Virus record (IMG/VR): IMGVR_UViG_3300027652_000001
Location: 1-59,081 of that record
DNA: 59,081 bases
Direction: 5' to 3' (one strand)
DNA from: a virus
This document shows positions 16,259-34,919 of the stretch, piece by piece (position 1 is the first letter of the stretch; every line of letters starts with the position of its first letter). A model generated the notes under the pieces. It searched no databases. It worked only from the letters and a program-made list of their open reading frames with translations, and was not told where the DNA came from. A program made the position numbers and the translations under genes.

Positions 16259-16264
16259 GGCTAT

Positions 16265-16437: not shown

Positions 16438-16457
16438 GCACTATCCACAGAAATAGT

Positions 16458-17300: not shown

Positions 17301-17449
17301 CAGGCCAGCTCCTCAAACCAGCCCTCGGGCAGGTTGACGATGAACCCGGGCAGGTGGAGCGATGCGCCGCCGTCCGATCGGGAGAGGAGGAGCGCGGTGT
17401 GGCCGCGGAAGGAGCCGGCGAGGATGACGACGTGGACGGGAGGTTTCAC
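17297..17449 (-). CDS. Small hypothetical protein (50 aa)
   Basis: GTG 17449 overlaps the C5-MTase stop. Its own stop overlaps the next GTG start. Confidence 0.45.
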   Translation of the reverse strand: MKPPVHVVILAGSFRGHTALLLSRSDGGASLHLPGFIVNLPEGWFEELAW

Positions 17450-18800: not shown

Positions 18801-19042
18801 CTCCCCTTAAGCTTTCGGCGGTAGCTCGACTTGGGAGAGCATTTCCAGTCGACCTCTCCGTGTATTTCCAAGGATTGAAGAGCTCGGGCTGTCTGATATT
18901 TTGGCATCGACAATTCCGATGCTATCTCGCGGACGGTCTTCCATTCCTGGGTCAAAACGGCGAACACGCGTGCTTGGGCGAGCCTGATTATTTGGCCGTC
19001 CGTGAGCGGTTTGTCGGGATGTAGAATTGGTTTCATCGTCAA
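18797..19042 (-). CDS. Winged-helix DNA-binding protein (81 aa). First gene of the second leftward operon.
   Basis: LTQEWKTVREIASELSMPKYQTARALQSLEIHGEV is a wHTH pattern. Confidence 0.55.
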   Translation of the reverse strand: MTMKPILHPDKPLTDGQIIRLAQARVFAVLTQEWKTVREIASELSMPKYQTARALQSLEIHGEVDWKCSPKSSYRRKLKGR

Positions 19043-19170
19043 GGTCTGAAGGCGGGCCGGGACCTTGACCTACCGTCCCGCCGTCTCAGATGTGTTGCTA
19101 TCCAGTTGCAAGCTGGACACCCACAGTTTATGCCACGTTCCCCATTGCGTGTCAAGCGTATAATTCATCC

Positions 19171-20832
19171 ATGAAGAGATGGCTCATCTTTTTGTTCTGG
19201 CTGTGCGCTGGCCCCGCGTTCGCGCAGACACTCCGCATCTCGGGCTGGTGCGAGCAGGGTGCCCAGCAGATCAACGTCGGCGGGGTGCTGTCTTCGCCCA
19301 CGACGCTGGTCCAGGCGAGCTACCCGGCGTGTAGGGTGACCGTGTTCCAGGCGGGAACCATCACCAAAGAAACTATCTACGCCGACAACATGATGACGCC
19401 ACTGGCGAACCCTTTCACCCTCACGCCGGGGAATGGTTACTGGTTCTTCTACCCGGCCATGGACACCGATCACGTCGACATCACGTTTGACCAGGGGGGA
19501 ATTCCCACCCCCTACACGCTGGGGGACGTGGCGGCGGCCGGCGGGTCGGGCGGAGGTGGCGGTGGAGGACCAGGAACTGTAACACGCGTAACATTTCCCA
19601 CAATTCCCGCTTGGCTGACCGCTTCCGTGGCGACAAACACCACGACGCCGGCAATTTCGATTGTTGTGGCGACCGGGCAGGCCTCGAACCAGGTCATCGG
19701 AACGTGCGGGTCGGCCACCACTTTCGGACCGTGCTCGCTGGGCGCCACGGATCTACCAGGCACGATCGTCTACAACAATCAGGCCAACACGTACTCGACG
19801 GGTGGCCAGAACTTCGCCGCGGCCAGCTTCCTGACGATCCCGAGCGGGCCAGGGTATGCTCCTACCAACAGCGGCATGATCGGCTACGACACGACCGCGA
19901 ACGCCTACCGGCTGGGGATCGCAGGGACGGATTTCATCATCGCGCCGCTCCTGAACGGCGCTTTCACGGTCGGCCACTGCCTCGAATATTCGACCACCCC
20001 GGCGCCCTCGATAATCGATGCTGGATTTCCGTGCAGCATGGGAGGCGGCGGAGGCGGAAGTCCGCTGACGGTCCAGGTGGGCGGGACTTCGACAGGGACG
20101 GCCAGCGCCACGCTCAACTTCAATTCGGGGAGCGGCATCAACCAGACGTGCTCGTACAACGCGGGCGCCTCGCGAAACGATTGCACGCCCGCCCTGGACA
20201 CCGCCTACGCCTTGTCGCGCGCCACAGACCAAAATGGAACGGATGCGACCTGTATCGACGCGTCAGGGAGCGGGACTTCGTACACCTGCTCGGTCACGCC
20301 CGGGCTCACCGGGTACACGCGCAACATGCGGATATATTTTGTTCCGCAGACGACGAGCGGAGCGGCGCCCACGCTGAACGTGACGGGAATCGGACCGCTG
20401 CCCCTCCAGTGGAATATCAACGGGACACTGACAAACGTGGCGGCTGGTCAACTCGTCGCCGCGCTGCCCTACATGCTCACCGCCTGGGGAAGTCCTCCGA
20501 CCGCGCTCGTGGTGCAGCCGACCGCCTACGCACCGAACACCGTGCAATCTTGTGGGACGACTATCGCCTGCTCGCACACTATTCTGAGCGTCCCGCAGAT
20601 CGTGACCGGTAGTGTGGCTCTGTCGAGCGGCACCCCGAGCACGGCGGCCATCACCGGGCTGTCTCCGGGGTTCACGTCGGCATCCACCTACCACTGCACG
20701 GTGAGCGATGCGACGACAGCGGCGAATGAGGTGACGGTTCTCGCGGCGGGGTACGTTTCAGGGACGGCGTTCACGATCACCGGGCCGAGCACCGTTACGG
20801 ACGTAGTGCACTATATTTGCGTGGGCAACTGA
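19171..20832 (+). CDS. Secreted tail-fibre-like protein (553 aa) with a Sec signal peptide and poly-Gly linkers
   Basis: MKRWLIFLFWLCAGPAFA|QT. TATAAT (19159-19164) lies 6 nt upstream of the ATG. A central domain (LSRATDQNGTD ... TLNVTGIGPLPL ... GSPPTALVVQ) is shared with 31244-31939. Confidence 0.75.
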   Translation: MKRWLIFLFWLCAGPAFAQTLRISGWCEQGAQQINVGGVLSSPTTLVQASYPACRVTVFQAGTITKETIYADNMMTPLANPFTLTPGNGYWFFYPAMDTDHVDITFDQGGIPTPYTLGDVAAAGGSGGGGGGGPGTVTRVTFPTIPAWLTASVATNTTTPAISIVVATGQASNQVIGTCGSATTFGPCSLGATDLPGTIVYNNQANTYSTGGQNFAAASFLTIPSGPGYAPTNSGMIGYDTTANAYRLGIAGTDFIIAPLLNGAFTVGHCLEYSTTPAPSIIDAGFPCSMGGGGGGSPLTVQVGGTSTGTASATLNFNSGSGINQTCSYNAGASRNDCTPALDTAYALSRATDQNGTDATCIDASGSGTSYTCSVTPGLTGYTRNMRIYFVPQTTSGAAPTLNVTGIGPLPLQWNINGTLTNVAAGQLVAALPYMLTAWGSPPTALVVQPTAYAPNTVQSCGTTIACSHTILSVPQIVTGSVALSSGTPSTAAITGLSPGFTSASTYHCTVSDATTAANEVTVLAAGYVSGTAFTITGPSTVTDVVHYICVGN

Positions 20833-21084
20833 CTACTCGATGAACCTTCCCATGTGAAGGCAGACATAATGCCCGGATGCTCCCTGCGCTTTGTAAAACT
20901 CAAGCGCTTCTTTGTAAGAGGAGGGGTCTAGGCGGTACAGAGTTTTGCAATCACAGTCGCCTGTCCAATTGTCCTCTGGAATGACCCACACCACTAACGG
21001 TTCTAGAGCAACTCCGAGCAAAGTTCTCGAAATCTCGAATTGAAACAGCGCGACTCCCGGCTTGACCACTCTACCGACCGACAT
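20833..21084 (-). CDS. Hypothetical protein (83 aa)
   Basis: ORF lying last in a three-gene leftward unit. Its stop directly abuts the stop of the convergent gene. Confidence 0.65.
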   Translation of the reverse strand: MSVGRVVKPGVALFQFEISRTLLGVALEPLVVWVIPEDNWTGDCDCKTLYRLDPSSYKEALEFYKAQGASGHYVCLHMGRFIE

Positions 21085-21262
21085 GCGCCAACTCGCGCAG
21101 CGACTCGCCGAACAGAATCGCCTGCACCACGTCGTTCACCGAGCGGCCGGCCACGCGGCATGCCTCCACATGATCCGCGTTGATGTGCGCGAGGTTGATG
21201 TTCTTCGGTGACAGCCACAGACGATAGAAAACATCCTTCTCGTAGTCCAGGCGGCCCTTCAT
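21071..21262 (-). CDS. Hypothetical protein (63 aa)
   Basis: ORF coupled to the XRE gene. Confidence 0.6.
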   Translation of the reverse strand: MKGRLDYEKDVFYRLWLSPKNINLAHINADHVEACRVAGRSVNDVVQAILFGESLRELAHVGR

Positions 21263-21432
21263 GCGGCCTCCGTCATCCAGCGCAGAATTGCGGCCAGCGT
21301 TCTGCCGTCCATTGCCAGGCCGCGCTCAACCCGCGACAAGGTCGGAGCGGAAAGTCCTATTTGTTTAGCCGCCTCACGGAGCGTCAAATCGCTCATTGTT
21401 CTCCAGTGCTTCAGTAGTCTCGCAAGTCTCAT
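21259..21432 (-). CDS. XRE-family helix-turn-helix regulator (57 aa, CI/Cro-like)
   Basis: MSDLTLREAAKQIGLSAPTLSRVERG. ATG 21432 is preferred because a longer start would cover the divergent promoter region. Confidence 0.75.
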   Translation of the reverse strand: MRLARLLKHWRTMSDLTLREAAKQIGLSAPTLSRVERGLAMDGRTLAAILRWMTEAA

Positions 21433-21439
21433 GCTTCTA

Positions 21440-21486
21440 ATTGTTTCACAAATGAGTTGACAAGTCAATCTCTGTTCGGGTAGAAT
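21440..21486. promoter_or_regulatory. Back-to-back divergent promoters whose -35 boxes form the inverted repeat TTGAC-AA-GTCAA
   Basis: Rightward: TTGACA 21457-21462, 18-nt spacer, TAGAAT 21481-21486. Leftward: TTGACT (plus strand 21463-21468), 17-nt spacer, AACAAT (plus strand 21440-21445). Confidence 0.55.
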
Positions 21487-21492
21487 CTCGGC

Positions 21493-21648
21493 ATGGAAGA
21501 CATTACAACGTTTCTTCAAGCGGAGTTTCGTAAAGCCGAGCGTCGTAAAGCCGAGCGCCGTCGCGTGCTCCGTAATTTCGGTAACTGGGCGCTGGCGGGT
21601 TGCATCGTGGCCGGGTGCCTGTTCGGTTACTGGGCGGTGGCCGGATGA
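21493..21648 (+). CDS. Small membrane protein (51 aa) with an RKAERRKAERRR repeat and a C-terminal TM helix
   Basis: ATG lies 7 nt after the -10 box. C-terminal WALAGCIVAGCLFGYWAVAG. ATGA coupling to the next gene. Confidence 0.5.
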   Translation: MEDITTFLQAEFRKAERRKAERRRVLRNFGNWALAGCIVAGCLFGYWAVAG

Positions 21649-21833
21649 AAGGGTGCAAATGCACGTGGGGATCAGAGACCGGCTTCACATTCTGTGCTCT
21701 GCATGAATCCGCCCCCGAACTGCTGAACGCCTTGCGCTGGAGCATTAACCACCAAGATGAATGCCTCGGGGATTATCCCGAACTGCTGAATGCTGCCAAA
21801 ACGCTAGTGGCTAAAGCAGAGGTCCGCACGTGA
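21645..21833 (+). CDS. Small Cys-rich protein (62 aa)
   Basis: MKGCKCTWGSETGFTFCALHES... Coupled at both ends. Confidence 0.55.
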   Translation: MKGCKCTWGSETGFTFCALHESAPELLNALRWSINHQDECLGDYPELLNAAKTLVAKAEVRT

Positions 21834-22003
21834 CCGCCGTCTGCATCGGAGCCGTTCTGCTGATGCTATTCCTCGTCTGGGGCGTGATCCGCACCTCGCG
21901 CATGCCGGAGACTCCGTACCAGCAGAAGCGCAAAGCGTGGGGCAACGAGGAATCGGACGGTTGGGAGTCAGATCTTGAGCGCGACCGGAGAAACCCGCGA
22001 TGA
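21830..22003 (+). CDS. Small membrane protein (57 aa, N-terminal TM helix)
   Basis: VTAVCIGAVLLMLFLVWGVI. GTGA and ATGA overlaps. Confidence 0.5.
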   Translation: MTAVCIGAVLLMLFLVWGVIRTSRMPETPYQQKRKAWGNEESDGWESDLERDRRNPR

Positions 22004-22293
22004 ACTTACGTAGATGGTTCAGGAGGCTGTTCGCGCTGGACATACCCACTATCGTATTGCCAGTCAACTGCAAGTTGCCGTTTCATCCCTTTGCTGCGGA
22101 CGCCGCTGGAATACGCGTGGACGAGCCGGTATCTTGGACGATACGTTCCTCAAATCCTGAAATCGCAGTGATCCAAGGTGAATGCCTGGTCCCAACTGGT
22201 AATAAGCTGGGGAATGTTCGAGTAATCGGAAATCTGGATGGCCAAACTCCGCAAGTGATGGCTCACGTCAAGATAGTCCCGCATGAATCGTAG
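22000..22293 (+). CDS. Ig-like (Big_2-type) domain protein (97 aa)
   Basis: VSWTIRSSNPEIAVIQGECLVPTGNKLGNVRVIGNL resembles bacterial Ig-like group 2 domains. Confidence 0.5.
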   Translation: MNLRRWFRRLFALDIPTIVLPVNCKLPFHPFAADAAGIRVDEPVSWTIRSSNPEIAVIQGECLVPTGNKLGNVRVIGNLDGQTPQVMAHVKIVPHES

Positions 22294-22355
22294 TGAGGGT
22301 CCGCCTCAAATTCATTGAGTCGTTATCGCGCCTGTGGTATCGTAAGCCGAAGCCA

Positions 22356-22919
22356 ATGCCGGATATCTACGAGCTTGTCGAAGAAATAAACCGCAGAGTA
22401 AAGAGGCTCGAAGATCAGGAGCGGGATGACCAAAAAACGCTTGCAGCGATAGCCGCTGGAGTCAATCTGCTCCTTGCCGACATTCAGCCGCCACCCAGGG
22501 CCGCTAGGCTTACCGTAACCTGGGACCAAGGAGAACCATCTATGCCAGTAACTATTCAGCCCGGGGAATCCCGGGGAGGAACCGTTTCGCCACTCACCGC
22601 CGCTGGAGCCGCTTCGCCGGCCACCCTGAGCGGTCTCAGCGCGTCTTTCTCTGACCCGACGTTTACCGTCGTGCCTGACCCGGCCAGTCCGAACACCCGA
22701 ATCATTGTCACCGCTCCCACGAGCCTTCCGAGTGGGTTGACGACTGATGCCGCGACCGTGACATTCAGTGCAACCGCGACCGAGCCCGATGGTGTTACCA
22801 CCGAGTCGATCTCCGGCGTGGACACCGTGACCGTCAATGCGGTCGTTCCTCCTCCTCCGGCTCCGGCTGCGAGCTTGGGCATCGTCTGGGATCCGGCTCC
22901 GTCGCAGCGTAAGCGCTAA
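22356..22919 (+). CDS. Hypothetical protein (187 aa). N-terminal coiled segment and a Thr/Pro/Ala-rich beta-rich C-terminal part.
   Basis: ATG 22356 is preferred to the GTG at 22293. Confidence 0.7.
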   Translation: MPDIYELVEEINRRVKRLEDQERDDQKTLAAIAAGVNLLLADIQPPPRAARLTVTWDQGEPSMPVTIQPGESRGGTVSPLTAAGAASPATLSGLSASFSDPTFTVVPDPASPNTRIIVTAPTSLPSGLTTDAATVTFSATATEPDGVTTESISGVDTVTVNAVVPPPPAPAASLGIVWDPAPSQRKR

Positions 22920-23740
22920 TGGTCCGCTCGATCCCCCATCCGACTCTCGGAACCGTTTGTCTTGGCCGGAGGCATTCTACTGGCACGCCTCCGGCGCGCT
23001 TCGCTGATTTCATCCCGAAGAAACTGCCAGGCGTTCCGCTTGTGTTGGATCTCACACCCAAAGCGATGCCAGCGCTTGACCTGATTTATTTGAACGACAC
23101 GCTTGGGGACTGCGTTCCGGCTGGAAACCAGCATCTCGCGGGAGTGTGGACTGGGAACGCTTCGGGCGCCCCGACTATGTTCACCGACGCCCAGACGGAC
23201 GCCAACTACACCGGCATGTCGGGCGGCGAGTTCAATCCGTCCGACCCATCCACCGACCAAGGGTGCGAACCACTAGTAGCCATCGAGTGGTGGCGAACGA
23301 ACGGACTGCTGCCGGATGGTAGCCACAAGATCGCGGGCTATCTTTCGCTCGATCCGAACAACCGAGTGCAACTTCGCTCGGCGATCTGGCTGTTCGGCGG
23401 CGGCGTCGGATTCGCGCTGGATCTTCCCGATCCCTACATCAATCCGGCTCCCGCTGCCAGTGGATTCACGTGGGACGTTGCGGGCGAACCGGATCCTGAG
23501 AACGGTCACTGGATCGTTTCGGCTGGATACAACGCCAAAGGAGTGACCATCGCCACGTGGGGAATGCTCGGGACGTTCACCTATGAAGCCATCGGTGACT
23601 ACTGTCCCTTGAGCGCTGGCGGCGAATTGTACGCGATGATTTCTCAAGACGCGCTCAATGCCGCGATGGCGAAGGCCCCGAACGGTCTGGACTGGGCACA
23701 GATGAAAACGTATTTCGATGGAGCGGGAGGAAACGCGTGA
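22919..23740 (+). CDS. Papain-like (C1-like) cysteine peptidase
   Basis: Cys motif NDTLGDCVPAG. His/Trp region NGHWIVSAGYNAKGVTIATWG, which resembles the papain pattern GHAV..VGY....NSWG. Confidence 0.55.
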   Translation: MVRSIPHPTLGTVCLGRRHSTGTPPARFADFIPKKLPGVPLVLDLTPKAMPALDLIYLNDTLGDCVPAGNQHLAGVWTGNASGAPTMFTDAQTDANYTGMSGGEFNPSDPSTDQGCEPLVAIEWWRTNGLLPDGSHKIAGYLSLDPNNRVQLRSAIWLFGGGVGFALDLPDPYINPAPAASGFTWDVAGEPDPENGHWIVSAGYNAKGVTIATWGMLGTFTYEAIGDYCPLSAGGELYAMISQDALNAAMAKAPNGLDWAQMKTYFDGAGGNA

Positions 23741-24213
23741 TCAGAACTTTCTTAACATTCACACTCTTGGGCGCGCTGCTGTTTCAGGTTGGATGCAGCC
23801 AGAGCCAAGTCACAACCACGCTCGACCTGGTGGTGACCGCTGCCGACGCCGCAGTGAGCGTTCTTCAGAGTACCGGCACACTTCCACCAGGGACCGCATC
23901 CCTAATCACCGGCTACCTCGGCCAAGTGACCACCGGCGTGGAATTCGCTACGACCGAATTGGCGTCAACGGACTCAACCGCAGTCAAAGCGGCCAAGATC
24001 ACGCAGGAGTTCGCGATGATCGTTGTCCCGAATCTTCCGCCGGGGACCGGGGCCGCGATAGTGTCGGTGGTAGCTTCCGTAGCTCAGGCCGTGGCCAACT
24101 TCCTCTCCACGCTTCAAACCGTGGCCATGACTTCGGCAGACAAGCAAGTCCTTCCCAAAATCGCCCGGCACAACGCGATGGTCCGCGCCAAGCTGATTAT
24201 CGTCCACAAGTAA
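23737..24213 (+). CDS. Secreted helical protein, possible lipoprotein (158 aa)
   Basis: MIRTFLTFTLLGALLFQVGC|SQSQ is a signal peptide with an imperfect lipobox (Gln at position -3). Confidence 0.6.
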   Translation: MIRTFLTFTLLGALLFQVGCSQSQVTTTLDLVVTAADAAVSVLQSTGTLPPGTASLITGYLGQVTTGVEFATTELASTDSTAVKAAKITQEFAMIVVPNLPPGTGAAIVSVVASVAQAVANFLSTLQTVAMTSADKQVLPKIARHNAMVRAKLIIVHK

Positions 24214-24222
24214 CGTAGCGCG

Positions 24223-24228
24223 TATAAT
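24223..24228 (+). promoter_or_regulatory. TATAAT box 11 nt upstream of the giant gene ATG, in the same GCGTATAAT context as at 19156-19164
   Basis: gcgtataatgggtcttcagtATG. No SD is present. Confidence 0.35.
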
Positions 24229-24239
24229 GGGTCTTCAGT

Positions 24240-27200: not shown

Positions 27201-30200
27201 TGTTCGAACGGAACAACCGTGTCTGGAACGGTCAGCGTTCCGGCCACGGTTACGCTCAAAGCGCTTGCTACGGAGGCTGCGTTCGCTAACTCGTCCGTAG
27301 CCAGCGCAACCTATACGATCATCAGTCCGAGCCCCTGTACGATCTCGAGCCCCACGGCCTCACAGTTGATTCAGGCTGCGGCGCCCCTGCAGTTGAATTC
27401 GTCGTGCTCCACGGCACCCACTGCGACCAAGGCGATTTACTTCGTGGATTACCAGCGGGTCGCTACGGGATATTCGAATCCATCCCTCGGCTCGACCATC
27501 AACGATTTCAGCACGGCCTGGTGCGGTCCGTTCTGCGCGACCTGGTGGCCGGGGCTCAATGGGGACGGATCGCACACGGTCTTCGCCCAGTTTTACCAGT
27601 TCGACACGCTACTCGCTACCACGCCCACCGTGAGTTTCACCGTCCGGCTCGAAGGGATGTCGAACCAGACGGTCAATGCGCTGCCGACTTCGGGCACCGG
27701 CGAATTCGGAGTCCTCTCCAACGGCCCGGGCGCGCACTTTATGCTCGACGGCCTAGACGGGTCGAATTCCAATTACTTCGGCGATCCGCTTTATCACTTC
27801 TGCGGGCTCGATGGCGGCACCGGGCAGGCGGGAGGCTGGAAGATCCCGGCGCTCAAAACCTCCTGCTGGCCGAACGGACAACACCTGATCGTGGCGGGAA
27901 CTTATCCGACCACCGGCGCGGCTGATCCATACGTGGTCACGCAGACGTTCACCAGCGCGAATGTGAGCGGCAACAACATCACGGTCACCAATCACTCGTT
28001 TCAGAACGGCAACGCAGCGGTCTGCTTAGGCGCATGCCCCGCGCCGATTGTGGCTGGTGCGCAGTTCTTCTGGACGACAAGCCCGACATGGGCGGCCGGC
28101 ACAGTCGCGGTCTCGATTGCCGGCGGTGTCGGGACGTTCACATGCTCATCTGCATGCGGCGTCACATCCGGCACAACAGTCAACATCGAGAACATCCAAT
28201 CGACGAACCAAGTGACCGGGCAACCGAACTGCGACGGGCAATACACAGCGGCATCAGGGTCGGGTACCTCGTTCACCGTGAACCTGCCCGCGGTTTGCAA
28301 CGGAGCATCCGGAGCCAAGAACCTGGAAGTAGACATTAACCCGATCTGGATCCAGTACGTGGACGGTAACACTGTGTCATTCTCCGCGACACCGGGCGGC
28401 TCGACCATACCGCTCACCAATACCGGCTCGGGCACCATGACGATCCAGTCGCGCACGCGGTCGCCTTACTACACAGTAGGCGGATTTGTGCCGGGGCAAA
28501 CCATGGGCGCGGATTACGTGCAGTACGGCGGCCCTGCGAATATTTATCAGCTAGTCACGTTCTCCAACGGCGCTGCGCCGATGCAGTTGATGCCTAAGTT
28601 CGGTGAGATGCATCTAGTAGCTGGAGCGAGTCCGACCGCGCTTTGTAATGCGGCAACGCTGATCGAGAATACGGATTTGACCTTTAGTGCGACCGCCTGC
28701 AACGCTTCGGGGCTTACCTGGACCGAAGTGGACGACGGTGGCGTGTCTGGCGTTTGCTCGGTGGATGCGTCAGGTAACGTGACGCCGATCATGGCCGGAT
28801 GGTGCAAGGTAAATGTAGCCTGCACAGCGTGCGCGGTGGGGGGTGTAACGCTTCCCACCGTGACCGTCTTTGTCCAAGTTCATGCGGGTTCTGTTACCTT
28901 CCCGCACTACACCCGATCCGGCGTGCTCGCGAACGCGTTCATGCCAGGGCAATCCTTCTATCCGATCAGCGCGTATCAGTTCAATCCCGCGCAAGCGCCG
29001 TCGTGGCTGGGACCTGCACTTATGCGGTCAAATGTGAACTCGCTGCCGATTGGGTTCACGTACCAAACCAATCTTACCAACCCGACCGCGACCAGCTGCC
29101 CGACGTGGCCGGATTCGACCATGAGCACCTGGGCGACATTCGCGCAGACCTGGAACCTGACGCTCGAATACGACATGTACCCGGTCTGGTTCCAGCAGGG
29201 ATCGAACGCCACATCGCTTGCAGCGATATTAAACAACACTGGGTATAATCGGCGTGCGTGTCTTGCAACGCTGGTATCGTATCTGATCGGTCTTGGGCGT
29301 GTCTGGAGGATCTATCCCGATGACGAAGTCTCAAATATTATCGGGAACTATCTTGAGCCTAATCCGCTGATCGGCCAAGGCAACTTCATCAGCGCGACAA
29401 CAGCAGGCGGCGTGGCCACGTTCAATGTGGCGAACATCACGTCGCTGGCCGCATTCAATCAAGCGACCGGGCAGGGAAATGCAATTCAAATCACAGGAGC
29501 GACAACAAATTCATGCCTGAACGGATGGTTTTTACTGACAACTGTGTCGTCTTCTACATTGACGGCACCGGCAGGCTCGTGTGGGAATGGTTTAACAATC
29601 AACGCGACGAGCGATCCCAGTGCATCCATGAACCTCCCCTTCCCCGGACTAGCCACCTCGGGGACGACGCTGCTGCAGAACGCCGGACCGCTCCCGGCGA
29701 ACCTAGGCCAGACGGAACAGACCTGGGACAGTAACCTGACGAGCATCGTGGTGTCAGGCTCGACCGGCACGATCCACTGGACCGGCCATGCTGTCACATC
29801 CGGAACCGCGATCCGGCTCTATTGCTTCGCTTGCGCACACACCAACCTGAACTTCATCGGCGTCCCAGTGGTCACGGATGCGAACACGCTCACGATCACC
29901 TGGACGGGAACAACTGGGGGGACGCCGCCCGCGGCTGGCACTTACAATAACTCAACTGACCCATCTGGTTTCTACCTGACGGTCGATCCCAATTGGGGCG
30001 CAAATCCGTTAGGGCAGTTTTACGCGCTGGTTAACGCGGTGCCGAATCATCCACTGAAAGCGTTCTCGATGCTCGGGACGCTGTTCTTCACGCCATCGAC
30101 GGTTTACAGCTACCAAGGCAACCCGGTGAACACGGACTCCTCGTGGCTCTACGTGCCCCAAGGACCGCCCAACTACACCGGCGCGGATATCTCGGTCAAC

Positions 30201-31157
30201 CAGGTCGCAAATTACAGTCAGTCCACTTCCGGGATCGCATCCCGCGCCTACCAGCTTGCCCCACGCTCGATGCTGTTCTACGGCGGCTACATCGGCGGCG
30301 GCAACATGGTCCAGTATCAGCGCTCGTTTTATTTCGACCCTTCAACAGACCGACCGGCGCAGAACGGGCTCAACTGGCGCCCGGAAACCACGCTCACTCA
30401 GATGATGTCGATGAAGACGATTGGAGTGCGTGGGCTCAGGCTCTACAACGGGTATCAGAACACATCCTCTGGCTACACTCAGCTTGGCCTCGGCTGGAAC
30501 GCGCCAGGCAACGGCGGATTCGGAACCGGCGCGGGCATGAGCCCCTACACGGCGCCTAAGACATGGGCCGCAATGGCACATACGAATGCGTTACTCGTGA
30601 TGCGCGAGGATACGGAATTGCAGCCGGAAGACAACAAACCGTACTTGGGGCCGTACTTCCAGACCGACGCGCACTTGAGCGCGACTTACGGCAATGAACG
30701 TACAGTTGTATGTGCATCTGAAATGCCGTATGGCGCAATTACGTTTCCGCTCAACCCGATTTCCGGCGGCTCGACGCTACTCTACACAAGCGATGGGTAT
30801 TCGACCCGCGTCTCAACCGTCGCAGGCAACCCGTCGTCGATTACGCAGGAATTCTGCCCGTCGCCCGGTTACACGTGGGTCTACGTCAGCCAGCCGCCCG
30901 GATACACTGCGCTCGATCAGGTCACATTTACACCGCCGAGCCCGTTGCCATTCAGTGCAGTCCACATGCTGATCCAGGTCGGATATTACCCGGACGGGAT
31001 GCAGGATGACCCGGTGTTCGACGCGACATCCGGCGTGACCGTGCCCATTGACCATCACAATATCAACGCCTGGTACCGGACGCTGTACTGTGATTCAAAC
31101 TTCCAACCATTGAGCATCAGCGACCCGACTTTAATTCCTTCACAGAATCTGCCGTGA
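24240..31157 (+). CDS. Giant secreted protein (2305 aa). Sec signal peptide, then a Gly/Asn/Thr-rich N-terminal region (possible beta-helix), five tandem CHB_HEX_C-like Ig-type repeats and a ~1280-aa C-terminal region. Candidate polysaccharide depolymerase or adhesin.
   Basis: MKAHLLLLALLAIPAIAG|TY. Single uninterrupted ORF. Repeats are read in the translation (see 26022-27323). Confidence 0.85.
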   Translation: MKAHLLLLALLAIPAIAGTYTAATCNYADVNAVVNGPTHVAVAGDIIQIPAGTCTWTNGIVVTVGITISGNGTPNNTPGTFGAGTTNTVLIDNYPGGAVISLQGIPFGQTSRISTLDIEPQSATTALVSPLQAAGTCTSSGCPNLRIDNIVFGLTTQWTEAGNGAPADWMIRTDNIVGVIDHTSLPPGSNVALLNGNLSAYLGVGGFGDNSWAQPDSFGGANVMYVENSIVNGGGFSDCDNNPAGGAIGGCRIAVRFNQSSASSSNGFVYVHGLDTDGRPQGGRQIEVYGNTLNCTSGSFGGCQAITVYRSGTGFTFANTAAVSGGGFYNQIASILVFRTVFNNSSFGSCGGSSAWDTNDGTVYYSGTTSTNGQTLTDTSKSWTTNQFIPNGAPFSVYDVTQGWWAEIASNTGNTLTINGSIPEQSNSFNSGDSYQILRATVCADQGGRGQGNYISGGTPTPASALSQALDPIYEWNNTVGTLFHGNVGTDTGRTIANRDWYTDGSNGSPQANTSPTSPFNGTSGVGFGTLANRPTTCTVGVGYFATDQGNWNQSSNGFGQGQLSTCVSTNTWAIHYTPYTYPHPLISGGGSLLPPSFSPPGASYGPAQTVTISLPSGSTGCFTVDGSTPTATTAGTCSHGTTYSTPITVSTSLTVKALATKVGFTNSAVANAVYVINGALAAPTISPATGTYAGPQTVTISGPAGSTVWYNFTGTFTGCTASSCPTATMYSSPVTVATSETIHALATEAGWSNSAVATAAYTINGALPAPTFTPSAGSYGPTQTITINLPAGAAGCYTTDGSTPAAATPGTCSHGTTVSGTVSVSSTLTLKAISTEATFLNSSVSSALYTINGALSTPTFSPNGGSFALPQTVSITCPAGATCWYNFTGTFTSCTPTVCTGATMYSAPVAVSTTSTLFSIATEAGWSNSTVGSAAFTINGTLSAPTFSPPGAVYSSTQTVTVNLPMGSTGCYTSDGTAPTATTPGTCSNGTTVSGTVSVPATVTLKALATEAAFANSSVASATYTIISPSPCTISSPTASQLIQAAAPLQLNSSCSTAPTATKAIYFVDYQRVATGYSNPSLGSTINDFSTAWCGPFCATWWPGLNGDGSHTVFAQFYQFDTLLATTPTVSFTVRLEGMSNQTVNALPTSGTGEFGVLSNGPGAHFMLDGLDGSNSNYFGDPLYHFCGLDGGTGQAGGWKIPALKTSCWPNGQHLIVAGTYPTTGAADPYVVTQTFTSANVSGNNITVTNHSFQNGNAAVCLGACPAPIVAGAQFFWTTSPTWAAGTVAVSIAGGVGTFTCSSACGVTSGTTVNIENIQSTNQVTGQPNCDGQYTAASGSGTSFTVNLPAVCNGASGAKNLEVDINPIWIQYVDGNTVSFSATPGGSTIPLTNTGSGTMTIQSRTRSPYYTVGGFVPGQTMGADYVQYGGPANIYQLVTFSNGAAPMQLMPKFGEMHLVAGASPTALCNAATLIENTDLTFSATACNASGLTWTEVDDGGVSGVCSVDASGNVTPIMAGWCKVNVACTACAVGGVTLPTVTVFVQVHAGSVTFPHYTRSGVLANAFMPGQSFYPISAYQFNPAQAPSWLGPALMRSNVNSLPIGFTYQTNLTNPTATSCPTWPDSTMSTWATFAQTWNLTLEYDMYPVWFQQGSNATSLAAILNNTGYNRRACLATLVSYLIGLGRVWRIYPDDEVSNIIGNYLEPNPLIGQGNFISATTAGGVATFNVANITSLAAFNQATGQGNAIQITGATTNSCLNGWFLLTTVSSSTLTAPAGSCGNGLTINATSDPSASMNLPFPGLATSGTTLLQNAGPLPANLGQTEQTWDSNLTSIVVSGSTGTIHWTGHAVTSGTAIRLYCFACAHTNLNFIGVPVVTDANTLTITWTGTTGGTPPAAGTYNNSTDPSGFYLTVDPNWGANPLGQFYALVNAVPNHPLKAFSMLGTLFFTPSTVYSYQGNPVNTDSSWLYVPQGPPNYTGADISVNQVANYSQSTSGIASRAYQLAPRSMLFYGGYIGGGNMVQYQRSFYFDPSTDRPAQNGLNWRPETTLTQMMSMKTIGVRGLRLYNGYQNTSSGYTQLGLGWNAPGNGGFGTGAGMSPYTAPKTWAAMAHTNALLVMREDTELQPEDNKPYLGPYFQTDAHLSATYGNERTVVCASEMPYGAITFPLNPISGGSTLLYTSDGYSTRVSTVAGNPSSITQEFCPSPGYTWVYVSQPPGYTALDQVTFTPPSPLPFSAVHMLIQVGYYPDGMQDDPVFDATSGVTVPIDHHNINAWYRTLYCDSNFQPLSISDPTLIPSQNLP
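26022..27323 (+). repeat. Five tandem ~87-aa coding repeats of two alternating subtypes (A-B-A-B-A)
   Basis: Type A contains GC[FY]T.DG[ST].P.A.T.GTCS.GTT. Type B contains WYNFTGTFT.CT...C..ATMYS.PV.V. Every unit ends in A.Y.ING or TII. Confidence 0.85.
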
Positions 31158-31243
31158 GCGTCTACAATATAACGATATGAAAAATAGACCGATCACGCAG
31201 GCTCGAGCGACGCGACGCTGATCCCGAGTCAAGGATTATTCTG

Positions 31244-31939
31244 ATGAGACTCGCCTTACTTCTAGCCCCAATCGCGCTCCTGCACGCACAGATAGTGCCT
31301 CGCGCCGTTTGCACTCCCACACCAATCGTGCCTTACGTCCAAGTTGGCACCGCGACATGGCAGCAACTCGCCACCGCTACCGTCGCAGCCGTCACAACCG
31401 TTGTGAACCTCGGGCCGCAGCCCATCGGTGGCACTTGGGGATGGACTGGGCCGAATAACTTCGCATCCACCGCGCGGGAGCTTGACGGAATCGCTCTCAG
31501 CGTTGGCGCGAACAACTACATCGCGACGTACACCAACGCAAGCGGCTGCAAGAGCACGCAGACGTTCACGATCACAGTCACCGCGCCCCCGCCTACTGTC
31601 ACATGTGGCTCGGGCCTCGTCGCCTCTGGCGCGCTTTGTAATGTCGACACGTCGGTTATCCTGTCCCGCGCAACCGACGTGAATGGTTCCGATCACTGGC
31701 TCGCTGTCACTGGTGGCCCGGTGAACTGGACCGCCGAAACAGGCATCACCGTCCCAGCCTACGTGCAGGGCAACTGGTGGCTGGCGCAGTTCGCGAACGG
31801 CGCCGGAGCGACGATCAACCTTGGTCCGGGGATACTACCGCTGCTGGTCAAAGGGACTCCGGTCGTCGGCGGAGAATGCACCAACGGTTGCATCCTGCAG
31901 GCGATTGGATCGCCACCGACCGCGCTAGCGGTCCACTAG
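31244..31939 (+). CDS. Secreted tail-fibre-tip-like protein (231 aa)
   Basis: MRLALLLAPIALLHA|QIVP. The C-terminal domain (LSRATDVNGSD ... INLGPGILPL ... GSPPTALAVH) is homologous to part of 19171-20832. Confidence 0.75.
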   Translation: MRLALLLAPIALLHAQIVPRAVCTPTPIVPYVQVGTATWQQLATATVAAVTTVVNLGPQPIGGTWGWTGPNNFASTARELDGIALSVGANNYIATYTNASGCKSTQTFTITVTAPPPTVTCGSGLVASGALCNVDTSVILSRATDVNGSDHWLAVTGGPVNWTAETGITVPAYVQGNWWLAQFANGAGATINLGPGILPLLVKGTPVVGGECTNGCILQAIGSPPTALAVH

Positions 31940-32355
31940 CGCTTGTAGAAACGGAACGGGCCGCTCGTCATCGTAAGGGAATCCGGCGTGGCCCACGGCG
32001 GGCGTTTATCTTCCGGCTCGCTCTCGTAAAAGTTAGCGCCGTTCGTGGGATCGGTTCCCAGAGGGCACTCCGCAACCGCCTGGCAAGTCAGCCATGCTAT
32101 CCAGTCCGCTCCGGCTTGCTGTGGTGGCGTCGGTTCGGTCGGCCACGCCACGATGTTCGGGTCGCCCTTCGCGGTCATACTAGAGAATTGAAGGTGCTGC
32201 GCGATCACGCCGGAGATCGTTCGCGGCCAGCGGCGTTGTGCATCGTTCATACGGTTCAGGATCACCCACCAGATACAGGTGAGCGTGGCTGCGCTGCAAC
32301 TTCGGGCCTCGCGCCACAGACAGAGGGAAGCGAGCCACTTGTCGTATTCGCTCAT
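31936..32355 (-). CDS. SleB-like cell-wall hydrolase (Hydrolase_2 family), candidate endolysin
   Basis: CLWREARSCS ... WWVILNRMND ... ISGVIAQHLQFSS matches the SleB/CwlJ pattern as remembered. No signal peptide. Confidence 0.7.
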   Translation of the reverse strand: MSEYDKWLASLCLWREARSCSAATLTCIWWVILNRMNDAQRRWPRTISGVIAQHLQFSSMTAKGDPNIVAWPTEPTPPQQAGADWIAWLTCQAVAECPLGTDPTNGANFYESEPEDKRPPWATPDSLTMTSGPFRFYKR

Positions 32356-32705
32356 TTGTTCTGGGAATCGAGGATAGCCTGTTTCTTGGCCGCCAGTTCT
32401 TTCATCTGAGCGTCGAGCGCACGAGTCTCATCCGTCTCCGTCTTAGGCCAGATAAGCATGAGACTCGCCTTGATAGCTGCCTCTATGCTGCTAGGCACTA
32501 CGAGTGGAGAACTGCCCTGCCTCTTTTCCTGCGCCGCCATCCTCGTCAGCCGAGCGCTGGTCTGCGCCATATACACGTTGCTCGCGGTGTCGGTCGTCTG
32601 CATCGTAATTGCTGGGTGAGTCTTCCCTGCATCGTCGGTGTAGACGATCGAAATCTCAGCGGCGTTAGACGCGATCACGAAAAGAAAATAACAAAATAAT
32701 CTCAT
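32352..32705 (-). CDS. Secreted or membrane-anchored protein (117 aa) with a C-terminal coiled segment. Possible spanin-like lysis accessory protein.
   Basis: MRLFCYFLFVIASNA|AEIS. ATGA coupling to the endolysin gene. Confidence 0.6.
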   Translation of the reverse strand: MRLFCYFLFVIASNAAEISIVYTDDAGKTHPAITMQTTDTASNVYMAQTSARLTRMAAQEKRQGSSPLVVPSSIEAAIKASLMLIWPKTETDETRALDAQMKELAAKKQAILDSQNK

Positions 32706-33542
32706 TTAATTCATCCTTTGAATTGTCGAGTAGAAACTGTACTGCGGGCTTCCAATCACGCTCGTCAGCGCAACCGCGTAAGTGATCGCGGAACCATTCG
32801 ATTTCAGATACGTGCAGCCTTGTCCCTCCCCGAGCGCCGTCAATGTCACCGCTGTCAGCTTCGTCGGCGTATCGGTCTCAGATTGCGTCCCATCGTTCCA
32901 GCCAAACGTGACTCCTGCCGTACCAGCGCTGCCTGTCGTAGTGGTCACCAGATAGCCGCAGACGTTGTAGATTCCTGCCGCAGGAGTGGCAATTGTTGTC
33001 GTGGTGATTGCGGAAGTCTGGCCGGTCAGTTGGATGGCGGTGGCGTAGGGAACCTGGAATGGAGTGAACCCAAGAGATGCTTGCTTGGTTGCTAGTCCAG
33101 TGTCAACGTAAGACGTGGTCGCCAGTTTTGTGCTTCCATCGGCCTGAGACTGAGTAGTTGCGGTCGTACCATTTGGAAGTGCCGGGGTACCTGACAGACT
33201 CGCAGCGGTGCCGGAAGTATTGGCCGCGTTATTCGGTATGTCGGCCGATACTAGGGCGTGACAAGTGAACGTGTGTGAAGTTGTTGAGTACTGATAGACA
33301 CCACCGCTTGCAGTACAGTTAACCAAGCTAGTCAGAGCAAGAGTGCCATTCAAGATTTGATCTTGCGTACCCGTTGTGATCGGTGCTTGCTTCCCGTTGA
33401 ACGTCACCCAGTCAGCGCTGGCCAAACAACCTGTCTGAGATGCGGATGCAGCAGGGCACATGCTCATCGGAGAGTTAACCGGAGGCATGACCTGGGAGAA
33501 TAGGAGCATCGAACAAATGAGCACGTAAGCGAGTATTTTCAT
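32706..33542 (-). CDS. Tail-fibre-like protein (278 aa) with an N-terminal signal peptide
   Basis: MKILAYVLICSMLLFSQV. Carries the tail-fibre motifs SADWVTFNGKQ and DGSTKLATTSYVD. Confidence 0.75.
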   Translation of the reverse strand: MKILAYVLICSMLLFSQVMPPVNSPMSMCPAASASQTGCLASADWVTFNGKQAPITTGTQDQILNGTLALTSLVNCTASGGVYQYSTTSHTFTCHALVSADIPNNAANTSGTAASLSGTPALPNGTTATTQSQADGSTKLATTSYVDTGLATKQASLGFTPFQVPYATAIQLTGQTSAITTTTIATPAAGIYNVCGYLVTTTTGSAGTAGVTFGWNDGTQSETDTPTKLTAVTLTALGEGQGCTYLKSNGSAITYAVALTSVIGSPQYSFYSTIQRMN

Positions 33543-34618
33543 TAAAAGGATGCCCCAATATTATCGGCGATGGTCACGCCCGTTGCGCTCGTTCCACAGT
33601 AGGCGACGAGCTTTCCGGTACCGGAGTTGGTCCCTGCCTCCATACGAAGAGTGCATCCGCCAGTACCCGGCGCGGTTGCCGAGGCGGATGTTTTAGGAAA
33701 GATATTCGGAAGCGCCGTGGTCGCGCTTCCCATCTTGAGCGTTGCGAGATTCAATTGAGCCAAAGAACCACCATCGGCGACTGGAACTCCTTGATTAAGT
33801 TCTAAGATATTCACACCTAACGGAGAGAATCCATTCATGCTACCGCTAATACTCTGATTGAAAATGGTCAATTCCACATCGTCACCGAAATTACCCAAGT
33901 CAAAACCGCCTGTTAAGTTCCCCAGTGCATCAGCTACATTCCATCCAACTTCTCCACCATTTGTAGGTCCTGCCTCCACGTTAAAAAATGCCTCGTATAA
34001 ATACGTACCGTTCAAGTAAGCGAGATAATCTATGTCTGAAATTTGAGTAATTTGACTAATGTTAGTAGGAGCAGTGACGGTCCCACCTGACACATAAAAA
34101 CTACTTACAATGAACTCGGCGTTCAGGTCAGAATAGGCGGCAACCGTGTTCTGCTGGAGATTTCCGCTCGCGATATTTGCTGTAACACTCAGCGAATTCC
34201 CCGGTCCATCACAGCACGACAAATCCGGCTCCGCGAGTCCCAATTGAAGTCCAGTCATGCCGGTCACCGTAGGATTAGCCGCCGGGTACCATTGGAATGT
34301 ATCATCTTGATCCAGATTCCCCGTTGGCCCAACGAACAGCACATCGAATGGATCGCCTCCAGTGGGATCGCCGATCATTCCACCGCCGCCACCGCCTCCT
34401 CCAGAAGCTAGTAACGCATATGTGCCAGCGCCCCCGATGGTAGGCCCCTCGCAATCCCAAGCCGCGAGCGTGGGCACGACGATCTTGAGCGCCAGCGGCT
34501 GGGCAACCGTGCAGGCTCCACTCGGGGCGCTGGTCACGTACTGAATCTGGGGTAAGGGACTCGGCTGCGCGCACAGGCGCACGCCGCACAGTGCGAAAAA
34601 GAGCAGCAGCCGCTTCAT
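33542..34618 (-). CDS. Secreted protein (358 aa) with a poly-Gly linker
   Basis: MKRLLLFFALCGVRLCA|QPSP. Contains a G8 run. First gene of the leftward fibre and lysis operon. Confidence 0.75.
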   Translation of the reverse strand: MKRLLLFFALCGVRLCAQPSPLPQIQYVTSAPSGACTVAQPLALKIVVPTLAAWDCEGPTIGGAGTYALLASGGGGGGGGMIGDPTGGDPFDVLFVGPTGNLDQDDTFQWYPAANPTVTGMTGLQLGLAEPDLSCCDGPGNSLSVTANIASGNLQQNTVAAYSDLNAEFIVSSFYVSGGTVTAPTNISQITQISDIDYLAYLNGTYLYEAFFNVEAGPTNGGEVGWNVADALGNLTGGFDLGNFGDDVELTIFNQSISGSMNGFSPLGVNILELNQGVPVADGGSLAQLNLATLKMGSATTALPNIFPKTSASATAPGTGGCTLRMEAGTNSGTGKLVAYCGTSATGVTIADNIGASF

Positions 34619-34640
34619 GCGCGAATGATACCACTTGAGT

Positions 34641-34919
34641 ATGGCAACGCTTTATGGCAACATCGGAAGCATGGATTTCAATCGAGCAACCGAAGTCAGC
34701 CCCGACGTTGACAAGACCGTCGAAGACCTTTTCACTTACCACCCTTGGAGCGCCGAGCAGACGCAGAAAGGCGTGGCCGTCCGTGATGCCCTTGCAAAGG
34801 CAGTGCGAGTGATCATCGAGAACGTGCCTCCGTGTCCTGACCGCACCGTGGCAATCCGCAAACTGCGCGAAGCGCGGATGGATGCGAACTCAGCTATCAC
34901 CCACAGCGGCAAATACTAA
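34641..34919 (+). CDS. Small phage protein, candidate Acb2-like cyclic-oligonucleotide sponge (92 aa; alternative TTG start at 34635)
   Basis: Motif FTYHPW-x11-VRDA ... VPPCPDRTVAIRKLREARMDANSAI. The Tyr and the basic residue 15 positions later resemble the family pattern as remembered. This is inference only. Confidence 0.4.
   Translation: MATLYGNIGSMDFNRATEVSPDVDKTVEDLFTYHPWSAEQTQKGVAVRDALAKAVRVIIENVPPCPDRTVAIRKLREARMDANSAITHSGKY

Follow-up and report, generated by a model that had tools for sequence, protein, structure and literature searches.

The 59,081-nucleotide stretch of viral DNA analysed here (the whole of which is called the window; IMG/VR virus record IMGVR_UViG_3300027652_000001, positions 1 to 59,081) encodes, between positions 19,171 and 34,618, seven proteins that begin with Sec-type signal-peptide-like N-termini. 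Several of these proteins resemble the tail fibres of phages, and one, a giant of 2305 amino acids (aa), resembles polysaccharide depolymerases. Judged from sequence comparisons, the N-termini are very probably functional export signals on fibre- and depolymerase-type proteins. The initial annotation of the window had singled out this run of signals as unexpected in a tailed phage, and the combination is indeed unusual: no description of it was found in the searchable literature, and the paper on the nearest cultured phage, Tunturi_1, is silent on the matter, reporting no virion proteomics and making no mention of signal peptides.

Signals were called throughout by our own rule-based heuristic (basic n-region, uncharged h-region of ~7–15 residues, small residues at −3/−1, total length ~15–30), and cleavage sites were placed by our own −3/−1 rule. 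All seven open reading frames (ORFs) were present with the starts that the initial annotation had proposed, and public gene callers agreed with them on the source contig (553, 158, 2305, 231, 117, 278 and 358 aa). With an arrow marking the predicted cleavage site, the plus-strand N-termini are MKRWLIFLFWLCAGPAFA↓Q (19171), MIRTFLTFTLLGALLFQVG↓C (23737), MKAHLLLLALLAIPAIA↓G (24240) and MRLALLLAPIALLHA↓Q (31244), and those on the minus strand are MRLFCYFLFVIASNA↓A (32705), MKILAYVLICSMLLFS↓Q (33542, for which the initial annotation had given no site) and MKRLLLFFALCGVRLCA↓Q (34618). By this rule all seven have the sequence characteristics of Sec substrates of signal peptidase I (SPase I), with n-regions of +1 or +2 and small −3/−1 residues, and the +1 residue is Gln at four of the seven sites. 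Together the proteins amount to exactly 4000 aa, or 20 % of the genome (12 kb).

A hydrophobicity scan of the 83 genes detected a strong N-terminal hydrophobic segment preceded by a basic n-region in these seven only, which puts signals in 7 of the 16 genes of the 19.2–34.6 kb block and in none of the 67 genes outside it (Fisher p = 2.8e-6). A looser rule added weak cases at 8610, 17297, 22000 and 48288, and the heuristic gave a few weak false positives elsewhere in the genome. Transmembrane (TM) anchors were considered as an explanation and rejected, since the hydrophobic cores (~9–13 residues by eye, 10–17 by algorithm) are shorter than a membrane-spanning helix and are followed by −3/−1 sites, and the true TM proteins of the genome look different. 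Misplaced gene starts were also rejected, given the agreement of the public calls, translational coupling (at 33542 and 32355 the start codon shares bases with the stop codon of the gene before it), the alignment of homologues from residue 1, and the nature of the only upstream extension, which begins at an in-frame ATG at 19090 before the 553-aa gene, is not the called start and has a TATAAT box within it. Upstream starts therefore do not remove the hydrophobic segments. The seven N-termini of the initial annotation thus stand on the heuristic, the independent gene calls and the clustering, and short h-regions, purifying selection, co-inheritance with a host secreted-enzyme domain and the parity of cysteine counts argue that they are genuine Sec-type signals and not TM anchors or start artefacts.

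The evidence for selection came from L009, an otherwise unrelated phage contig that carries the same three-gene cassette (425, 337 and 117 aa, corresponding to 358, 278 and 117 aa in the window) and on which no gene outside the cassette is similar to the window. Over the first 53 codons the two versions of the 278-aa gene differ by 15 synonymous and four nonsynonymous codon differences, and within the signal itself by four synonymous and two conservative changes (I/L and Y/F), a pattern that points to purifying selection on the signal. A signal was also kept in 10 of 13, 71 of 138 and 42 of 96 homologues in three fibre families, and in 17 of 20 members of the family of the giant.

Cysteine made up 2.2 % of residues in the seven proteins compared with 0.78 % in the structural module, the mature 553-aa protein having 14 Cys and the mature 231-, 278- and 358-aa proteins six each. 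Among 215 full-length homologues from the three fibre families, mature Cys content was 1.49 % in signal-bearing and 0.89 % in signal-less members (p = 6.5e-8). When the members with at least one Cys were compared, the Cys count was even in 98 of 109 signal-bearing homologues (98 : 11; binomial p = 1e-18) but in only 48 of 82 signal-less ones (48 : 34; not significant), and the two groups differed (Fisher p = 7e-7). Complete pairing of the cysteines in disulfides, bonds that are made in the periplasm rather than the cytoplasm, would give an even count, and the parity can therefore be read as a probable sign that the proteins are exported and disulfide-bonded. Disulfide formation only after release is conceivable, yet the missing pattern in the signal-less relatives would then stay unexplained. 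One such relative, the signal-less and Cys-poor P0157, lies inside a structural module.

The claim that several of the signal-bearing proteins are tail-fibre-like was borne out by sequence repeats, a shared domain and fold matches. The 553-aa protein (19171..20832, plus strand) consists of a signal (aa 1–18, AFA↓Q), a two-Cys N-terminal module (N-module) at aa ~19–125 (WCEQG...TVTVF...NPFT...GIPTPYTLGDV), linkers of Gly runs, a fibre domain at aa 342–449 and a conserved C-terminus (...HYICVGN). The 231-aa protein (31244..31939, plus strand) has a signal (LHA↓Q), an immunoglobulin (Ig)/cadherin-like middle and a C-terminal fibre domain (aa 134–231) that shares 35 % identity with that of the 553-aa protein (E = 2e-7), as the initial annotation had suspected. 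Residues ~340–430 of the 553-aa protein are the only part confidently modelled by AlphaFold2 (AF2; pLDDT 64–85), and the domain matched the fold of the Pa193 tail fibre (prob 1.0, E = 0.014) and those of 19 phage proteins in BFVD at E ≤ 1e-3, several of which are annotated as tail fibres.

On the minus strand, the 358-aa fibre-like protein (33542..34618), encoded by the first gene of its operon, comprises a signal (LCA↓Q), an N-module (QPSPLPQIQYVTSAPSGACTV...), a Gly8 linker and a C-terminal tip of ~55 aa (APGTGGCTLRMEAGTNSGTGKLVAYCGTSATGVTIADNIGASF); its homologue on L009 (425 aa, 49 % identity) has a canonical lipobox, LFAG↓C. The 278-aa tail-fibre-like protein (32706..33542), the start of which overlaps the stop of the 358-aa gene, has a signal (LFS↓Q) and a fibre repeat (NTSGTAASLSGTPALPNGTTATTQSQADGSTKLATTSYVD) and ends in a beta-rich tip. 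Its SADWVTFNGKQ and DGSTKLATTSYVD motifs, which had been put forward as fibre hallmarks, were recovered in a large family that has the fibre repeat and is defined by ‘NTSGTAANLSGTPALPNGTTATTQ..DxSTKLATTAYVD’.

Immediately after their signals, both the 553-aa and the 358-aa protein possess a conserved two-Cys module of ~60–100 aa that is common to many otherwise different proteins. The module of the 553-aa protein was found in signal-bearing homologues (P0147/150/151/152/154) and in signal-less ones (P0153/P0157), and gp12 of Tunturi_1 aligns with its signal and N-module from residue 1 at 31 % identity; a further protein, P0172, possesses both the 553-type and the 358-type module in tandem. The C-terminal tips of the two proteins are also widely shared. 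Conserved N-modules combined with variable distal parts appear to follow the usual design of virion-anchored receptor-binding proteins (RBPs). No match was found in Pfam (E ≤ 1) or PHROGs for the 553-, 358-, 278-, 231-, 158- or 117-aa protein, and a tblastn search of 50,697 isolated phage genomes gave no match for the 553- and 278-aa proteins and one marginal match, to the C-terminal tip, for the 358-aa protein.

The giant (24240..31157, plus strand) is a multidomain protein that is predicted to be exported (signal aa 1–17, AIA↓G). It comprises a beta-helix domain of the glycanase/lyase type (aa 18–590; 24291–26009), about five CHB_HEX_C/Fn3_assoc Ig-like repeats identified by Pfam (aa ~600–1030) and a C-terminal part of ~1270 aa that has no detectable relatives and matched nothing in Pfam (even at E ≤ 1) or PHROGs. 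Most of its 51 Cys form short-range pairs that recur in the repeats. The AF2 model of the N-terminal domain is a right-handed beta-helix (pLDDT 65, pTM 0.68), and the top 50 Foldseek matches in the PDB were nearly all beta-helix lyases, hydrolases and tailspikes, its neighbours including PL6 alginate lyases, chondroitinase B, RbmB, WceF and phage tailspikes. Neither the giant nor the 553-aa protein, nor a 273-aa protein encoded nearby, had a match in sequence searches of the PDB.

The closest relatives of this domain are cellular. The signal together with the first 570 aa of the giant (the domain at residues 18–590) is 53–69 % identical to signal-bearing Acidobacteriaceae proteins of ~600 aa, in which a clear signal directly precedes the same ‘GTYTAASCN.SDVN’ start, and some alignment columns are invariant for D, E, H or R. 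Three Acidobacteriaceae loci were examined (L011–L013, contigs of metagenome-assembled genomes), and in these the homologues are stand-alone signal-bearing proteins (6001–7730) encoded among genes for GT2 and GT1/GT4 glycosyltransferases, UDP-GlcNAc 2-epimerase, a Wzy_C polymerase/ligase, a sugar epimerase/dehydratase and AsnB-like proteins. Such gene content identifies the loci as polysaccharide biosynthesis clusters, and by analogy with WceF the homologues are probable glycanases of the cell's own exopolysaccharide (EPS), belonging to a family without a Pfam model. The giant, which the initial annotation had described as enzyme-like, can thus be specified as having an N-terminal domain of the beta-helix glycanase/lyase type that is homologous to proteins of EPS loci, and the host's equivalent of WceF, signal included, seems to be either common to phage and host or a capture by the phage.

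The window matches ENA contig k141_1291818 (59,123 bp), and near-identical contigs are present in other samples. It is a complete, circularly permuted phage genome of ~59 kb, because a 571-aa gene on a differently permuted copy spans the window ends (58.7 kb to the end plus 1–1434), the ORF at 85–1434 being merely the C-terminal part of this gene; host DNA flanking a prophage was thereby ruled out. A large terminase, a portal, a major head protein and an SU10-type adaptor are encoded, and the phage is therefore probably a podovirus. Its only isolated relatives are the Tunturiibacter (Acidobacteriota) podophages Tunturi_1 and Tunturi_2 (PP887698 and PP885685), with TerL, portal, capsid, tail protein, adaptor and a 1161-aa protein sharing 26–30 % identity with their Tunturi_1 counterparts. 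In a scan of one genome per species, 20 of the 21 relatives of the giant's first domain were from Acidobacteriota, and these affinities indicate that this soil phage has a host in the Acidobacteriaceae.

The initial annotation had suggested looking for the same architecture in related metagenomic phages, and signal-bearing homologues do recur in other phages, including the cultured Tunturi_1. All nine genomic contexts examined were phage, with the homologue in or beside the structural module, and in six of the nine the homologues occupied the tail-fibre or tailspike slot of a late structural operon (Tunturi_1, L033, L009, L008, L032 and the P0122 myovirus). In Tunturi_1 (L002/L003, PP887698) the signal genes lie at 10371–23028 and 53744–54946, and gp12, gp13, gp14, gp16, gp17 and gp78 all carry signals, for example MKKFIQLALLFILPAAASA↓Q. 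Five of these, the 1190-aa gp12 together with gp13, gp14 (‘tail spike’), gp16 and gp17 (‘virion structural protein’), are flanked by the gene for the gp11 tail protein on one side and by lysis genes on the other, and the mature forms of four of them have 20 (gp12), 10 (gp13), 20 (gp14) and 32 (gp17) Cys; gp78 is a lipobox-bearing ‘tail protein’ encoded among early genes. The order of tail protein, signal-bearing fibre and endolysin is the same in L033 as in Tunturi_1. Elsewhere, a 1943-aa signal-bearing homologue of the giant directly follows the baseplate wedge genes of the myovirus, L008 encodes three consecutive signal-bearing proteins (1114, 947 and 1324 aa), the L009 cassette follows genes for internal-virion-like proteins, the L032 homologue lies within the structural module, and those of L006 and L007 are beside packaging or head genes. 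The signal-bearing fibre gene of L033, a related phage, is followed by a 1061-aa gene (11535–14720) with 32 Cys, no signal at the called start and an N-terminus resembling a helix–turn–helix (HTH), which may be fused or miscalled.

From these observations we infer that the block would be a host-recognition and polysaccharide-degrading arsenal whose products are exported, cleaved and folded oxidatively, with disulfides, and only then attached to virions, this last step being the least certain. Taken as a whole this chain is given slightly less than even odds. The precursors would be exported unfolded through SecYEG and cut by SPase I, four of the seven then exposing an N-terminal Gln, and would fold and trimerize in the oxidizing periplasm, where the paired cysteines would become disulfides. 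The beta-helix domain of the giant would cut host EPS or an O-antigen-like polymer. Meanwhile, capsids and tails would be assembled without fibres in the cytoplasm; once a holin had opened the inner membrane and the endolysin acted, the particles could bind the periplasmic fibres and spikes via the conserved N-modules. Three of the predicted exported proteins share an operon with the endolysin. Particles of T4 and P22 that lack fibres or spikes can acquire them in vitro, and late attachment is therefore physically plausible. On a broader scale, it may tentatively be proposed, with somewhat less confidence again, that tailed phages of the Acidobacteriota, and probably of other soil phyla, build their virions in two compartments, heads and tails in the cytoplasm and Sec-exported fibres and spikes in the periplasm, where the latter would fold oxidatively with the aid of a small co-exported protein before being attached when the holin breaches the membrane.

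That these proteins are the phage's own fibres and spikes is favoured by the gene order around homologues in other phages, by the way the N-modules are built, by the large share of the genome invested and by the lack of other convincing RBP candidates. In particular, the position of the homologues in tail-fibre slots shifts the weight towards RBPs of the phage itself, and hence towards the non-canonical assembly step that was one of three roles suggested in the initial annotation. No recognisable fibre or spike was found among the tail-module proteins searched, ten other tail-module proteins gave no PHROGs match, and the sole candidate was a 708-aa Ig-domain protein.

Several points weigh against attachment to virions. 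We know of no tailed phage that assembles virion proteins from the periplasm, particles being formed in the cytoplasm. Early genes spanning 15 kb lie between the block and the tail module, and the block itself is divided over opposed operons. The 553-, 2305- and 358-aa genes each have a −10-like box of their own, that of the 553-aa gene resembling early-gene boxes, which is more in keeping with accessory genes expressed on their own than with late structural genes. The 708-aa protein (He_PIG; 54673–56799) could be the true RBP, the ‘virion structural’ and ‘tail spike’ labels in Tunturi_1 are predictions and not proteomics, and the cellular proteins closest to the enzyme domain of the giant are enzymes that are exported and act free, rather than virion parts. 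As to the data themselves, every signal call comes from our own heuristic and not from SignalP, the beta-helix matches in Foldseek were weak (E = 1.4e-3 to 1e-1, TM-score 0.2–0.33), the AF2 model of the 553-aa protein was poor overall (pLDDT 46), the number of Cys in the giant is odd (51), and the homologue statistics use related, non-independent sequences.

Many of these points would be accommodated if the proteins were exported but stayed free in the envelope, where they could strip or mask the receptor, block superinfection, spare progeny from binding to debris, loosen EPS or liberate sugars, with virion binding left to others such as the 708-aa protein; this is possible, though on balance doubtful. 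The apparently functional signals (selection and Cys parity) suit it equally, as do the position of the block outside the tail module in three units with −10-like boxes, the early-type box and leaderless start of the 553-aa gene, and the fact that the enzyme domain of the giant is closest to free enzymes from host EPS loci, WceF and RbmB also being exported matrix-modifying proteins. Receptor-masking proteins such as Llp of T5 are exported. Modification of the host surface has also been proposed for signal-bearing proteins of unknown function in Porphyromonas gingivalis phages (PMC10367356). Against this stand the six of nine contexts in fibre or spike slots of late structural operons and the signature of virion-anchored fibres in the conserved N-modules and variable distal parts. 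Tunturi_1 would moreover be left almost without receptor-binding candidates, 12 kb or 20 % of the genome is very large for accessory factors, and a Sec signal by itself takes a protein only as far as the periplasm, short of the EPS that lies beyond the outer membrane.

For the two smallest of the seven proteins only, a role in lysis was weighed, in which the 117-aa protein would be inner-membrane spanin-like or antiholin-like and the 158-aa protein an outer-membrane spanin or an exclusion lipoprotein; this is unlikely. The 117-aa protein (32352..32705, minus strand; signal SNA↓A) has a helical, charged C-terminal half, and its gene is translationally coupled to that of the endolysin, while the signal of the 158-aa protein ends VG↓C; no spanin pair was recognised anywhere in the genome. 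Nevertheless, the h-region of the 117-aa protein (~10–12 residues, followed by a cleavage site) is too short for a spanin TM anchor, and on L009 its homologue (33 % identity, in the same gene order) travels with two fibre genes, and what comes next there is a further signal-bearing protein instead of an endolysin. The genes of known two-component spanins are adjacent, overlapping or embedded, whereas the 158-aa gene lies 8 kb away in an opposed operon on the other strand; the two are not supported as a spanin pair, no detailed search for an embedded lipoprotein ORF having been made. Many phages encode fibre chaperones downstream of fibre genes, and because the 117-aa gene always follows fibre genes, this analogy suggests that its product may be a co-exported helper of fibre assembly, a lysis accessory being less likely.

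The 158-aa protein (23737..24213, plus strand) is rich in Ala, Val and Thr and is encoded by a gene with a GTG start and a GGAGG Shine–Dalgarno sequence that overlaps the stop of the preceding 273-aa gene. It had been described as a possible lipoprotein. Its signal is present and ends in VG↓C, and processing could take place at this lipobox-like site (FQVG↓C) or at an SPase I site (CSQS↓Q), but the Q at −3 does not fit the lipobox [LVI][ASTVI][GAS]C, or the PROSITE-type pattern [LIVMFWSTAG](2)-[LIVMFYSTAGCQ]-[AGS]-C, and the lipoprotein call is not secure. Clean lipoboxes were seen in relatives, namely the 425-aa protein of L009 and gp78 of Tunturi_1 (LLTG↓C).

It is more improbable still that the signals are unused, as relics of host secreted-protein genes or as membrane tethers, with the proteins folding in the cytoplasm, joining tails in the normal way and acquiring disulfides after release: the canonical assembly route of all studied tailed phages, the location of the genes in RBP slots, the existence of the signal-less homologues P0153 and P0157 and the false flagging of some phage structural proteins by predictors (in P. 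gingivalis, capsid ‘signals’ were ascribed to prohead-protease cleavage; PMC10367356) would all agree with it, but the charge, length and −3/−1 residues of the signals are textbook, roughly half or more of the diverged homologues, which number in the hundreds, retain them, purifying selection acts on them, their presence tracks both Cys enrichment and near-perfect even parity, and the host Sec machinery would recognise such a signal on an abundant late protein unless blocked, no sign of a Sec block being seen. An invertible fibre segment of the Mu G or P1 C type was rejected, the longest inverted repeat around the block being 33 nucleotides (nt) at 76 %, which is not significant; a small serine recombinase of the resolvase/invertase type (222 aa, 15172–15840) is encoded among the early genes.

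With regard to the remainder of the genome, early and replication genes occupy the minus strand from 18,800 down to 3,447 and are followed by the solitary 553-aa gene on the plus strand (19,171), and then by three small minus-strand genes, one of which encodes a 45-aa HTH protein. A plus-strand operon (21,645–31,939) encodes the proteins of 62, 57, 97, 208, 273, 158, 2305 and 231 aa and converges on a minus-strand operon (34,618 down to 31,936) that encodes those of 358, 278 and 117 aa and a 139-aa endolysin, after which the packaging, head and tail genes begin at 34,641 and continue across the junction as far as 3,625. The endolysin gene (31936..32355, minus strand), the start of which overlaps the 117-aa stop, is the last of its operon; its product belongs to the SleB-like Hydrolase_2 family (PF07486, E = 2.4e-10) and to PHROG endolysin families and has neither a signal nor a signal-arrest-release (SAR) domain. 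The genes of the plus-strand operon upstream of the 158-aa gene (21645..23740) encode proteins without classic signals: a 62-aa protein, a 57-aa protein with one TM helix, a 97-aa Ig-like protein with an RR-containing N-terminus, a 208-aa protein with a coiled coil and an Ig-like part, and the 273-aa protein (22919–23740; phrog_19005), which has an LGDC motif and no signal and the stop of which overlaps the 158-aa start. The 97-aa protein (22000–22293) begins MNLRRWFRRLFALDIPTIVLPV, with an RR-x-F motif resembling a Tat-type signal, and may be an eighth exported protein of the block, although the case is weak, with an Asp in the hydrophobic stretch.

Promoter-like boxes were located by sequence inspection only. 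A TATAAT −10 box (19159..19164, plus strand), contained in the motif GTGTCAAGCGTATAATT (19148–19164), lies 6 nt before the ATG at 19171 and suggests that the 553-aa gene may be a leaderless, separately transcribed unit. Another TATAAT box (24223–24228) is located 11 nt before the ATG of the giant, and a TGGTATCAT box (34625–34630, minus strand) 6 nt before that of the 358-aa gene, and a sigma70-like promoter with 11/12 matches (21457–21486, plus strand) precedes the plus-strand operon. The latter is in a switch-like region (21396–21645) with divergent sigma70-like promoters (TTGACA-18-TAGAAT, plus; TTGACT-17-AACAAT, minus) that sits between the gene for the Cro/CI-like 45-aa HTH protein and the operon of the giant. 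The GTGTCAAGCGTATAATT motif is related to boxes at ~3871 (minus), ~4635 (plus) and ~11067 (minus). A 21-nt motif, AAGGTAGTCAAGTATATAATT, forms an inverted pair (~3851–3871, minus; ~4615–4635, plus) flanking the gene at 3901–4590, and the ~3871 box is 5 nt from the ATG of the gene at 3447–3860; motifs of this class look like a type of promoter or operator, often found at leaderless starts. As regards genes acquired as morons or for lysogenic conversion, −10-like boxes precede three of the genes, there are no flanking terminators, and no large integrase was seen in the genome gene list, in which the only recombinase is the small resolvase-type one.

At 20832/20833 and 31936–31939 the ends of convergent genes touch or share 4 nt and are not separated by a terminator, and the divergent starts at 34618 and 34641 are 22 nt apart. 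Such strand switches are unusually tight, and the promoters would have to sit within neighbouring genes. Candidate holins are encoded at 47,687–48,461, in the head/tail module and 15 kb from the endolysin: three small membrane proteins of 84, 104 and 57 aa, of which the 57-aa one has two TM helices. A 92-aa protein (34641–34919) gave a weak Pfam match to the Acb2/Tad1-hairpin anti-defence nucleotide sponge family and has a 38 %-identical counterpart in Tunturi_1 (61255–61434).

Cytoplasmic assembly of every virion part is the textbook assumption for tailed phages. If the RBPs of a whole group of soil phages are routed through Sec, a previously unrecognised periplasmic branch of virion assembly would exist in the Caudoviricetes; the phages would depend on the Sec machinery, the signal peptidase and the disulfide-bond enzymes of their hosts; annotation pipelines that rely on signals to tell host-like secreted enzymes or auxiliary metabolic genes from structural genes would misclassify such proteins; and the recruitment of cysteine-rich, host-enzyme-derived depolymerases as spikes would be explained. 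If the proteins instead stay free, the phage would devote one fifth of its genome to factors that are exported to bind receptors and cut EPS, an unusually large commitment to remodelling the envelope. In both cases, the relationship with glycanases of host EPS loci points to the source of the depolymerases of Acidobacteria phages and bears on carbon turnover in acidic soils, where Acidobacteria and their EPS are abundant. Tunturi_1, which has the same trait, is in culture, and the question is thus directly testable.

Among known systems, the tailspikes and fibres of podoviruses (the P22, HK620 and Sf6 tailspikes and T7 gp17) and the fibre of the PB1-like phage Pa193 resemble the proteins described here in the beta-helix of the giant, the fibre domain of the 553- and 231-aa proteins, the repeats of the 278-aa protein, the mosaic N-modules and the location of homologues by tail and lysis genes. 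To our knowledge, however, known tailspikes and fibres lack signal peptides and fold in the cytoplasm, whereas each candidate here combines a signal with a disulfide-type Cys pattern and matches no fibre family in Pfam or PHROGs. No precedent was found in the literature for exported tail fibres, signal-bearing tailspikes or DsbA-dependent fibre maturation.

Phage proteins with host export signals that act in the periplasm or outer membrane are familiar, among them the spanins (Rz/Rz1), SAR endolysins, T5 Llp, Cor and Lom/Bor, some of which block the phage's own receptor; in contrast to the present proteins all are small and none is fibre- or depolymerase-like, and no match in sequence or gene order was seen. 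Closer in type are the SPase I ‘Q-rule’ proteins of P. gingivalis prophages, which have an N-terminal Gln and for which use of Sec and a change of the host surface have been proposed (Matrishin et al. 2023, PMC10367356). They share with four of the seven sites in the window the Gln at +1, but have no assigned function and are not described as fibre-like or as a run in a fibre slot, and the Q-rule has been described as specific to Bacteroidetes, whereas the host here belongs to the Acidobacteriota.

WceF of Pantoea stewartii is an exported enzyme with a tailspike fold that is encoded in an EPS cluster and trims the EPS of its own cell (PMC7949094). The cellular relatives of the giant's N-terminal domain resemble WceF and RbmB of Vibrio cholerae in being signal-bearing proteins of ~600 aa from EPS loci, and both enzymes were among the top fold matches; the resemblance is nonetheless distant, with TM-scores of 0.2–0.3 and no detectable sequence similarity, and the giant is four times longer, with Ig-like repeats and the extra 1270-aa part, and has a Sec-type signal where WceF uses a Tat signal.

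The closest parallel is Tunturi_1, in which gp12 shares the signal and N-module of the 553-aa protein and gp17 the CHB_HEX_C repeats of the giant, although its signal genes lie inside the late operon and those of the window are displaced into two opposed operons and a solitary gene. Tailspike depolymerases, exported phage proteins and EPS-locus glycanases with a tailspike fold are thus each known singly. No paper was found that describes the combination, namely whole sets of fibre- or spike-type proteins with apparently working export signals and a disulfide signature; it recurs in the RBP slots of many soil phages, and there is a substantial chance that it reflects a new route of assembly.

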